From Escherichia coli (lineage in GTDB: Bacteria > Pseudomonadota > Gammaproteobacteria > Enterobacterales > Enterobacteriaceae), in assembly GCF_030384885.1 (NCBI RefSeq), contig NZ_CP128614.1: 64,000 bases of DNA; one strand, given 5' to 3'. Position numbers: made by a program. Each line of letters opens with the position of its first letter. Positions within the stretch are counted from its first letter, which is position 1. Positions 36,001 through 39,000 of this stretch are shown in pieces.

Positions 36001-39000
36001 ATAAAGATATCGACATGCTGCTCTCCGCTTTCTGATGCCTTTGAAAGAAGACTGACCACTTCAATGTAGCGATTATCCTGCTCTGCAATGAACAACCAGT
36101 GCCCTTCGTTAAAGGCGGGTGCAGCGCTGTAGCGTTTAACAACAATTTCTGAAAGATTATATCCTGCCTGATTCAGCAGATTATTAAAGTTGAGTTGAGT
36201 TGAAATCACGTCTAACGTTTTCATAAAACCTCCTTTTCATCTGTACTTATTATACTGTTACCCAACCCCCAGCTAATAACCTCCCAGCAAATTTTCAGAA
36301 AAAAAACACCGCCTTTTATTTAAGATTGAACACATCCTTTTTTAATACCAACAATGATTATGAAACCACAATGTAAGTGAAGCGCCATTATGGAAAAGTA
36401 ACTTTTGTGCAGCTCATAAATTTTATTTATTAGTTACGTTCCTTTGTCTTGTGGTCGAAGTTCATCAGGCGAGGCCTAAGAAGAATATGTGTGGTTTCAG
36501 CCAATGCGGTGATCGGGCATTATAATTTGGTCGGGCTATTATACGTGGGTAAAGGTAGTGGTAGGGAGAGGATCAGGTTAAATTGCATTTTCCCGGTTGC
36601 CTTCCCTGGCCTACCGGTTTCAGGTCAGACGCTAAGACCAGCGGTAATACTTAAAGTAGTCCTCATTTACAGCCAAAAACTCCCTTAAACCGTTCATTAA
36701 TCCCTTTTCAAACGCTGTAACGATAAACCGGTATCCGTCCAGTGTTTCAATGTAGTAGATCCCGCCCGGTGTTATTCCAACATGCAACACCTCGGCTGTC
36801 ATCATAAACTGGCCTTCCGGAAAATCATGCGACAGGTATATAAAACCCGTCGTGGCCGGTGCGGGTGTGGCATTCACTAAGACACCGTTAAACTGCTGCC
36901 CGTGCCTCGCCGGTACAAGCTCACTTCCCCTGGTTGACTTATCGAGCAGCCCCTTAACATCTTTTTGCTCTTTAGATGAGGTATAGCCCCGCACATCACT
37001 CCCATCACCTGGGCGAGAGCCGGTGCCGACATGTGCAAGACGACGGTAAGCGCTGCGCATATTGATGTGGCAGGATGCCCCGGCTCTACCCTGAAGCCTT
37101 ACGCCAAAATCTTCGCAAAGTAATAAAATCTGACGTAGCTGGTGTTCATACACGGACGCAGAAAGTGAAAGGTTGAAACTGGAAAAGGTCAGTTCTAAAA
37201 CCTTTTCCCGTTTGTCATTGAAATGTGCTTCCAGCCTGATGATTGGCTTTTCCGACATTGCAAAAGCTTTGTCCGTTGCTCTGTACCGGCATTCATCTCC
37301 GAAACATTCTTCAACAACGCTGGCTATAACCGTGTCGTGATCGCCATCTTCCGGAGCTGGCACAAAGATTTCAAATTGTGCCGGTGTCTCCGGCTCCAGC
37401 AGAACGGGATATAAACGCGGAGAATTAAGCAATGCGCATTCAGAATTAATGAGCTTAACCCAGGCGCTTTTGTCGTCCGGATCCTTAAGCTGCTGTCCAA
37501 GGTTATCGCAAAAGTCTACTATCTGACGGGTATGCTCATCCGTGACTGCACAGATCAGGTTAAGACCATGCGTGGCCATACTCAATTCCCGGGTTCGGGA
37601 CTGGGAATTGATCGACCAGGGGTTAAGTGAAAGCGAAATAGGGCTTATGGAAGGGACGACCGTCTCATTCTGCAAATCTGTAAGCTGGCAGTTCGCAGTA
37701 GGCTTCGGGGAAAGGGTACTAAATATGTAACTTGCCTATTGTTTAGTACTGGCCTGGATATAAAACATCGCGTCCATGCTTGTATCCCGGGATGAAATTG
37801 AAAATAGCTTCATTTTTAACCTTAATGGATGAGCGATTTATAGTCATGTGCTGACAAATGGACATTATGTGCGCCATCATTCCATTCAAAGAATAATCGA
37901 TACTTAGAGTTTACTCGAATGGAGGAATAACGGTTTGACGTCATTCTTAAGCGTTCATAACGCAAGCTGTTGGATAATAACTCCCGCTCACTCTGGACAT
38001 TATCCAGCGTTTCGAGTCGACACAGAATCGCGTTAATAATTTCAGAAGGAATACCTGCCGTTGTTTTTCCATTACGGAAGAACTTTTCAAGCCGTCTGTC
38101 TTTAAATGAATGGATCATAGTTCCTCCGTAATAATTGACCTTAAAATTAAATTAAAAGGGCTTTGAATTAATGAATCCCTAAAATGCGGGCGGCGACTGC
38201 CAGCTGCTTATCACTTAACTGACGCTGGTGGGTTAAAGAAGACTTAAGGCTTTCCAGAAAATTATTACTGCTGGATTGCTGGGTGATTGCATCAACCATT
38301 TTTTGATGAGATCTGCACCATGCATTGAACGCAGAGTTGTGGGCGTTTTCAGTCCTCAAACGCTCGTTTTGCAAGGATGCTGACACTTTGCGGGCAGCTT
38401 GAGCATTAATGCGGTACAGCGCATTCAGCGTGTAAGCAGTGCGGGTCGTTTCGAGGCTGTAACCCGTGGCTTTACAAGCCATACAGCGACTTCTATAAAA
38501 ATGCTTACGCTCTCCCCGACCATTGCATTTATCGCAAAGAATACGAAAAGTATATTCCGCAGTACCTTTTACAGAATCAACACAGCGGATTTTTGCGCTG
38601 GAGATTTCAATTCCACTGCGATCATAATATTTGGTCATAATGTGATTCCTCCGGTTAGTTCTGGAGTAATCATGACAGAATGAATCTACTGGCTAATAAC
38701 CTGAGAGTAAATATTTTAAAAAAACATTGAGAGAGGGTCTGCAAATTTATACACGAAGGATTCAAATATAATTTTGTTTAAAAAATTAAGAGCATTCTGA
38801 AGTAAAAGTGCATCAAAAAGCATTCATGGATAAATCATGTACTGGTGCCAGCCATTTAAACGCGGGCATTGTTCCGGAGTGATTAAACGGTTTAGCATCA
38901 TAGATTAAAACCAAAAGGAAGGCGTCCTTCCCGTCTCGGGAATATTACTTTCCCGTTTGCAATTTAAGAGCCACTTAATGAGAAAGTAATAATTAAGTCA

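Follow-up and report, generated by a model that had tools for sequence, protein, structure and literature searches.

A HigB-family toxin without a recognisable HigA in a conserved three-gene unit of IncHI plasmids

The DNA analysed here, hereafter called the window, is a stretch of 64,000 nucleotides (nt) of the Escherichia coli contig NZ_CP128614.1 (assembly GCF_030384885.1) and was identified as IncHI2 plasmid backbone. It encodes a HigB-family, RelE-fold toxin of 98 amino acids (aa), which is the middle member of a unit of three genes: a gene for a 156-aa zinc-ribbon protein lies upstream and a gene of 393 codons, translationally coupled to the toxin, lies downstream (Table 1). The locus is not a higBA locus, as the helix-turn-helix (HTH) antitoxin that defines such loci was tested for and is absent from the window and from the plasmid. 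We regard it as possible, if doubtful, that the unit is a tripartite system in which a toxin of HigB fold is controlled by two proteins of unknown fold and no HTH antitoxin takes part.

The likeness of the 98-aa protein to HigB, proposed in a first-pass annotation of the window, is well founded. The protein matches the Pfam family HigB-like_toxin (PF05015) with E=5.4e-18 and 65.7 bits (cut-off 27) over profile positions 2-88 of 91, phrog_3066, 'toxin of TA system' (TA, toxin-antitoxin), with E=8.9e-18, and the solved HigB of Proteus vulgaris/Rts1 (PDB 4mct_B) with E=7.5e-6. It is basic (isoelectric point, pI, 9.7), and its C-terminal half, ...SSIRVNSKYRLFFEWNDGAHNVHLSAHDYKSLIH, is nearly invariant between lineages. 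The strong Shine-Dalgarno sequence that had been pointed out is a GGAGG (plus-strand CCTCC, 38123-38127) situated 4 nt 5' of the ATG. By analogy with other HigB/RelE proteins the toxin would act as a ribosome-dependent mRNA endonuclease.

In the nearest canonical relatives of the toxin (33-38% identity) an HTH HigA of about 100 aa follows each time, 4-25 nt downstream, which agrees with the earlier remark that the antitoxin comes after the toxin in higBA loci. A profile built from these HigAs gave no hit at E<=10 when run against the window and the complete 254,423-bp plasmid in six-frame translation, host chromosomes lying outside the search, and hhalign of the 393-aa or the 156-aa protein against it gave a probability of 0.1% each. 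Pfam, NCBIfam and PDB sequence searches did not reveal an HTH in either neighbour. Both the claim of a HigB-family toxin lacking HigA and that of a downstream protein lacking an HTH are thus upheld. The layout with the toxin first and a tightly spaced partner downstream is present as in higBA, with the 393-codon gene in the HigA slot, but the unit is tricistronic and not bicistronic.

The downstream gene had been described as a 347-aa open reading frame (ORF) starting 146 bp past the toxin. Such an ORF does exist, but the gap in front of it is coding: it reads as the 5' end of the 393-codon gene, cut by a recent nonsense mutation. The ATG of this gene (37811-37813) lies 8 nt past the toxin stop codon, which is overlapped by the AAGG Shine-Dalgarno sequence (plus-strand CCTT, 37820-37823). 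In frame from this ATG the window reads MKLFSISSRDTSMDAMFYIQASTKQ*ASY..., and homologues of the protein start MKLFGISSRD.... The amber triplet at codon 26 is a single C-to-T change, the position being Gln in every relative. An exact 61-mer centred on this codon carries TAG in 293 of 1,022 plasmid records and CAG in 727, including R478, the IncHI2 prototype, and hence the amber allele is real and derived and not a sequencing error. A degraded higA in the 146 bp, which had been suggested as something to look for, was not found, as the stretch is in frame and homologous throughout to intact relatives. The remnant ORFs of this allele are the 347-aa ORF with a TTG start and, within it, a 315-aa coding sequence (CDS) from Met79 (Table 1). 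We also considered a conserved internal start at Met79, which is invariant, and rejected it, as no conserved Shine-Dalgarno sequence is found there in the other lineages. For R478, RefSeq sets the start 12 codons downstream of the true one, so that the protein is annotated with 381 aa and not 393.

The order 156 aa, toxin, 393 aa was found in R478 (L006) and in all diverged IncHI lineages examined; its carriers include an Enterobacter plasmid contig (L002), a Salmonella-run contig (L003), Pseudocitrobacter vendiensis (L015), Klebsiella oxytoca pKPC_CAV1374, which is typed IncHI1A (L026), and a deeply diverged contig (L027). It is kept even where the large protein is only 30% identical. On a metagenome contig of 1.4 kb (L004) the toxin C-terminus stands directly before a 391-aa homologue. 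The distance from the toxin stop to the start of the large gene is 8 nt both in R478 and in the window; it is 8-9 nt in L002, L003 and L026 and reaches 15 nt in L027. The Shine-Dalgarno sequence of the large gene overlaps or directly follows the toxin stop in every lineage. As the surrounding genes are shuffled between lineages, with for example an immunoglobulin (Ig)-like gene on either side, the triplet moves as a unit. No terminator-like site occurs between the three genes, and neither a promoter-like nor a terminator-like site on the minus strand of the spacer before the toxin; a single transcript is therefore likely. The first-pass annotation had offered only a choice between a disarmed orphan toxin and a neutralising 347-aa protein, and overlooked the 156-aa gene, which is present wherever the toxin is. 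A toxin of this clade with one partner only was not found in the scan of species genomes, which returned just IncHI-type triplets and canonical higBA loci. In R27, positions 1-16,000 hold transfer genes and rsp but no triplet, and the unit of the L003 type had no megablast match in PLSDB.

Across the lineages, identity to the window ranges from 85% to 62% for the toxin, from 66% to 33% for the 156-aa protein and from 61% to 30% for the 393-aa protein. Synonymous sites are saturated between clades. The ratio of nonsynonymous to synonymous substitution rates (dN/dS) was estimated at about 0.05 for the whole toxin, its C-terminal half giving 0.02-0.05; the 156-aa gene lies at about 0.10-0.13 and the 393-codon gene at about 0.08-0.18. 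By these values each of the three genes is functional and under purifying selection, which is strongest on the toxin and suggests that it is a working protein. We also noted that the window and R478 diverge by about 5% over 34.7-40.8 kb, against about 0.7% at the toxin and the neighbouring gene ends. The stretch of low divergence (window 37400-38300) runs from the 3' end of the 156-aa gene through the toxin gene into the 393-codon gene as far as codon 78, and dS between the two is 0.02-0.05 within it and 0.16-0.28 further downstream. Recombination or extra constraint could account for the low divergence around the toxin.

According to PMC5027501, Rts1 HigB requires His54, Asp90, Tyr91 and His92, and active sites of the RelE family are highly variable. 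Aligning the catalytic residues, a check proposed along with the first-pass annotation, gave a mixed picture. Asp92 and Tyr93 of the toxin correspond to Asp90 and Tyr91 and are invariant in the clade, but the position of His54 is Glu55 (Lys in L027) and that of His92 is Lys94, which is invariant in the clade and followed by a four-residue C-terminal extension. Of the four canonical relatives compared, three likewise carry Glu where Rts1 HigB has His54, and these three have HigA partners. The changes of catalytic residues would not by themselves show a loss of activity; as active sites vary in the superfamily, activity is not readable from the toxin sequence. Decay of the toxin is unlikely, because of this variability and because its C-terminal half is nearly frozen by selection. 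The idea of a disarmed orphan does not agree with the toxin being the most conserved of the three proteins, nor with Glu55 being shared with relatives that have HigA.

The toxin protein is identical (WP_000581857.1) in amber and intact lineages. Besides the amber codon, we found five further independent lesions of the 393-codon gene in plasmids where the toxin and the 156-aa gene are intact: an insertion of the insertion sequence (IS) ISKpn26 at about codon 23 (NZ_CP149234), an IS903B-associated deletion past about codon 151 (NZ_CP031575), a truncation past about codon 186 (NZ_MW191863), an IS21 insertion at about codons 250-280 (NZ_OR782950) and an IS1 copy inserted close to the 3' end (NZ_MN476096). 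In each of the 1,025 records the 156-aa gene has its full length. The sole IS event in it occurs in an Enterobacter plasmid (L024; NZ_MZ156802.1, 2501-3040), where an IS903-like sequence replaces the promoter and the first 8 or so codons; the frame stays open into the IS, giving a fusion ORF of 167-179 aa, as we would expect if expression of the 156-aa protein must be maintained. In the two plasmids examined with a break on the toxin side of the unit, the toxin is deleted or truncated and a neighbouring gene is kept. It should be noted that some 'split' matches are artefacts of the point at which circular records are opened, and that the tally of about 6 lesions versus 1 falls on targets of 1,182 versus 471 bp and is not significant (estimated P about 0.1-0.3). 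As the toxin is unchanged beside six or more independent lesions, the 393-aa protein is unlikely to be the sole classical antitoxin. We argue that the full-length protein is probably dispensable, and that the lesions do not identify the neutraliser. The earlier proposal that the 347-aa protein neutralises the toxin is right in naming a candidate partner without HTH, but has against it the amber codon and at least five further lesions beside an unchanged toxin.

With the 156-aa and the 393-aa protein, searches of Pfam, NCBIfam, PADLOC and the PDB sequence set gave no family match above threshold, and neither protein has a recognisable fold. The 156-aa protein is basic (pI 9.8, net charge +13). 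Its model predicts an N-terminal beta-sheet with a zinc ribbon of DnaJ type, CxxCxGxG...CxxCxxTG, and, C-terminally, a bundle of helices with the conserved motif LSDKQLAVAARILG at its end; the match to the DnaJ profile reaches 20.8 bits, far under the cut-off of 32.7. A scan of viral contigs for this protein gave no match. Upstream of its gene lies a non-coding region to which we assign, as a probable function, a promoter and 5' leader (Table 1). The non-coding DNA is otherwise unalignable across IncHI lineages, except for one block about 30-60 nt upstream of the 156-aa start, conserved in all seven lineages aligned, in which TATTAG (38693-38698) is followed after 14 nt (N14) by CTGTCATGAT (38669-38678). 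We suggest the TATTAG(N14)CTGTCATGAT block as a candidate promoter or operator. A terminator-like hairpin at 38916-38932, detected by the terminator scan, would end the transcript of the upstream Ig-like gene.

The 393-aa protein is called 'flavin reductase' or 'flavin reductase family protein' by RefSeq in about 1,000 plasmid records, a name for which Pfam and NCBIfam profiles and fold searches gave no support. An AlphaFold2 (AF2) model of the repaired protein is usable (mean predicted local distance difference test, pLDDT, 80.9) and contains several domains. A small N-terminal beta-alpha module is predicted first, and two alpha/beta modules form an internal repeat of beta-beta-beta-alpha units (residues about 74-119 versus 206-251; BLASTP E=1e-6; window 37060-37590). 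The motif LQGRAGASCH is near-invariant, yet falls in a linker of very low confidence. Best conserved is a C-terminal beta-rich domain with helices (residues about 295-393), carrying PARHG..FNGV..NATP...YIET.DGYRF...YRW. The protein is acidic overall in most lineages, residues 59-185 having a pI of about 4.5 and a net charge of -6 to -11; that of L027 has a pI of 8.9.

The C-terminal 100 residues (window 36632-36920) also recur in proteins of 113-145 aa that stand alone and form an uncharacterised family (P0067-P0090; loci L007, L008 and L009). These have no Pfam family and match PHROGs without known function weakly, and their genes lie in arrays of small uncharacterised genes typical of mobile elements. 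The domain was considered as a general HigB antitoxin module and rejected, as the stand-alone homologues are not beside HigB-like toxins. The full-length model gave weak structural matches, over a subdomain of 65-117 columns, to small uncharacterised phage proteins, including the T4-type 'cd.1'.

As to which protein restrains the toxin, we tentatively favour the 156-aa protein, with the 393-aa protein as an accessory partner, because loss of the latter is repeatedly tolerated with the toxin unchanged and because the 156-aa gene accompanies the toxin everywhere. The 156-aa protein would keep the toxin harmless by binding it, by repressing the operon, or both, and the 393-aa protein, made in step with the toxin, would modulate or direct it and not be needed for survival of the host. 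Several points weigh against this assignment. Binding of toxin or DNA by the 156-aa protein is purely a candidate role, and profile searches found no known antitoxin or DNA-binding domain in it. Its basicity equals that of the toxin, which would be uncommon in a surface that masks a toxin. The slot and the tight coupling of the 393-codon gene are exactly those of the antitoxin in toxin-first systems, and every tolerated lesion spares its codons 79-151, which are present in 1,027 of 1,028 records; as all lesions spare this segment, a neutralising core may lie there, which the amber lineage would make only by restarting translation at codon 47 or at Met79. The lesion counts are small and not significant alone, and the toxicity of the toxin is only predicted. 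It is conceivable, although we find it quite improbable, that the 393-aa protein is a non-canonical antitoxin acting through its central acidic segment (about residues 79-151), the 156-aa protein being a separate regulator and the amber lineage surviving on the 315- or 347-aa product from Met79 or the TTG at codon 47. Its strict co-occurrence with the toxin, its position 8-15 nt past the toxin stop, the acidity of residues 59-185 opposite a basic toxin and the retained codons would all fit such a role, and type II systems are well known to swap partners (PMC10440598). The stop at codon 26, however, abolishes the translational coupling; Met79, besides its lack of a conserved Shine-Dalgarno sequence, lies inside a beta-strand in the AF2 model, so that any remnant product would begin with a disrupted domain. 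The allele with the amber codon is nevertheless present in 293 records with the toxin unchanged, the best-conserved C-terminal domain is lost in several plasmids with an intact toxin, and the acidic character is not kept in L027.

Alternatively, the HigB-like protein might no longer arrest growth at native expression and have been recruited to another plasmid function, for example in conjugative establishment; it would then need no dedicated antitoxin, its neighbours being partners and not neutralisers. We hold this to be rather unlikely, although only Asp92 and Tyr93 remain of the residues essential in Rts1 HigB, with Lys94 clade-wide at the His92 position and a variable His54 position, although the unit sits inside a 34-kb run of small accessory genes on the same strand between the transfer region and repHI2, and although loss of the 393-aa protein is tolerated. 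The variability of RelE-family active sites, reported in PMC5027501, makes such residue changes no proof of lost activity, and some canonical toxins partnered by HigA likewise have Glu in place of His54. Further, the near-invariant basic C-terminal half under strong purifying selection fits retained RNA or ribosome binding, and the breaks on the toxin side in the two plasmids examined remove or truncate the toxin while a neighbour survives. That the antitoxin comes from a higA remnant within the gap, or from a HigA of another locus acting in trans, is exceedingly improbable, as the gap belongs to the 393-codon gene and the HigA profile was negative in the window and the complete plasmid, host chromosomes being outside that search.

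The toxin belongs to the HigB family, and both partner swapping and three-component systems are already established. Among known systems, HigB-HigA of Rts1, the type member of PF05015, resembles the unit in its toxin family, in being plasmid-borne, in the size (about 92-98 aa) and basic character of the toxin, in the tightly spaced partner gene directly after it and in the C-terminal Asp-Tyr pair. It differs in that the partner here is a 393-aa protein without known domain and not an HTH HigA, that an extra gene precedes the toxin, and that the toxin has Glu55 for His54, Lys94 for His92 and the four-residue extension. In omega-epsilon-zeta and paaR-paaA-parE three genes are co-transcribed with a separate regulator (omega in the former), and neutralisation and regulation could likewise be split over two proteins here; the components are not homologous, however, the gene order is another, and no DNA-binding domain is demonstrable in either partner. 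The toxin-antitoxin-chaperone (TAC) system of Mycobacterium tuberculosis, HigB1-HigA1 with a SecB-like chaperone, shares the HigB-family toxin and the three-gene operon, and the sub-threshold DnaJ-type motif of the 156-aa protein (20.8 versus 32.7 bits) gives a faint further likeness, but here there is neither a HigA nor a SecB-like protein and the third gene is upstream of the toxin. MqsR-MqsA also combines a RelE-fold toxin with a small two-domain protein of similar build, as far as the model of the 156-aa protein predicts an N-terminal zinc module and C-terminal helices. We found no experimental study of the unit in the literature, where papers go no further than listing the HigBA or RelE hits that annotation tools give for IncHI2 plasmids.

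Plasmids of the IncHI2 group are major vehicles of mcr-1, extended-spectrum beta-lactamase (ESBL) and other resistance genes, and more than 1,000 sequenced plasmids contain the three-gene unit. In annotation pipelines the toxin is labelled type II and its partner 'flavin reductase', and surveys count the locus as HigBA-type although the plasmid has no HigA. If the toxin is active, identification of its true neutraliser would extend the HigB/RelE network by a new type of antitoxin and would bear on the stability of IncHI2 plasmids. The plasmid family in which the unit is fixed is clinically important, and both partner proteins lack a recognisable fold; should the unit be a tripartite toxin system, it may act in plasmid establishment or in conflict with phages or other elements and not in plain addiction, as part of the IncHI resistance plasmid backbone. 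The polymorphism between amber and intact alleles (about 29% versus 71% of records) and the IS-disrupted variants provide ready natural mutants.

Table 1. Features of the toxin unit and of the surrounding DNA, in window coordinates.
Feature	Position	Strand	Basis or remark
98-aa HigB-family (RelE-fold) toxin gene	37822-38118	minus	Family and structure matches, conservation
156-aa zinc-ribbon protein gene, first of the unit	38168-38638	minus	Ends 49 nt upstream of the toxin
Spacer between 156-aa gene and toxin, 49 nt, AT-rich	38119-38167	minus	Sequence; holds the toxin GGAGG
393-codon gene, translationally coupled to toxin	36632-37813	minus	Full-length homologues 391-394 aa
Amber TAG, codon 26 of the 393-codon gene	37736-37738 (plus-strand CTA)	minus	CAG (Gln) in relatives
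Remnant 347-aa ORF, TTG start at 37675 (codon 47)	36632-37675	minus	ORF call
Remnant 315-aa CDS, ATG 37579 (Met79)	within 36632-37675	minus	RefSeq annotation, 'flavin reductase'
Non-coding region, probable promoter and 5' leader	38639-38932	minus	Seven-lineage alignment, terminator scan
Ig-like protein gene	39073-41463		Within 34-kb minus-strand run
Orphan DNA methyltransferase gene	32819-34069		Within 34-kb minus-strand run
3'-Phosphoadenosine-5'-phosphosulfate (PAPS)-reductase-family gene	27251-29635		Within 34-kb minus-strand run
Second methyltransferase gene	42869-43630	plus	Just past the 34-kb run
Second Ig-like gene	45084-47504	plus	Just past the 34-kb run
Hok-family type I toxin gene	17363-17482		Beside partial DUF5431 pseudogene and IS150 copy (17620-18989)

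Many IncHI2 plasmids from E. coli and Salmonella share the 2.3 kb around the locus with 100% identity. In all, these 2.3 kb match 1,089 plasmid records, 984 of which are predicted to be conjugative, and were found in 260 of 5,426 complete E. coli genomes, nearly always plasmid-borne. Positions 189,120-239,119 of p14EC029b (NZ_CP024143.1) correspond to window 1-50,000. The toxin locus stands between the MobH relaxase and TraD transfer genes (window 1-3,745) and repHI2 (from 49,502), inside a run of minus-strand genes of 34 kb (7715-41703), mostly small hypotheticals. Genes for an HNH endonuclease and for DUF3085 and DUF957 proteins were also seen in this run, together with the larger genes given in Table 1. 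The layout of the run resembles that of plasmid leading or establishment regions; the origin of transfer (oriT) was not located. Further, the plasmid carries hipBA outside the window and a hok gene inside it, both unrelated to the HigB-like toxin, and the regulatory part of the hok locus may be disrupted by the IS150 copy beside it.

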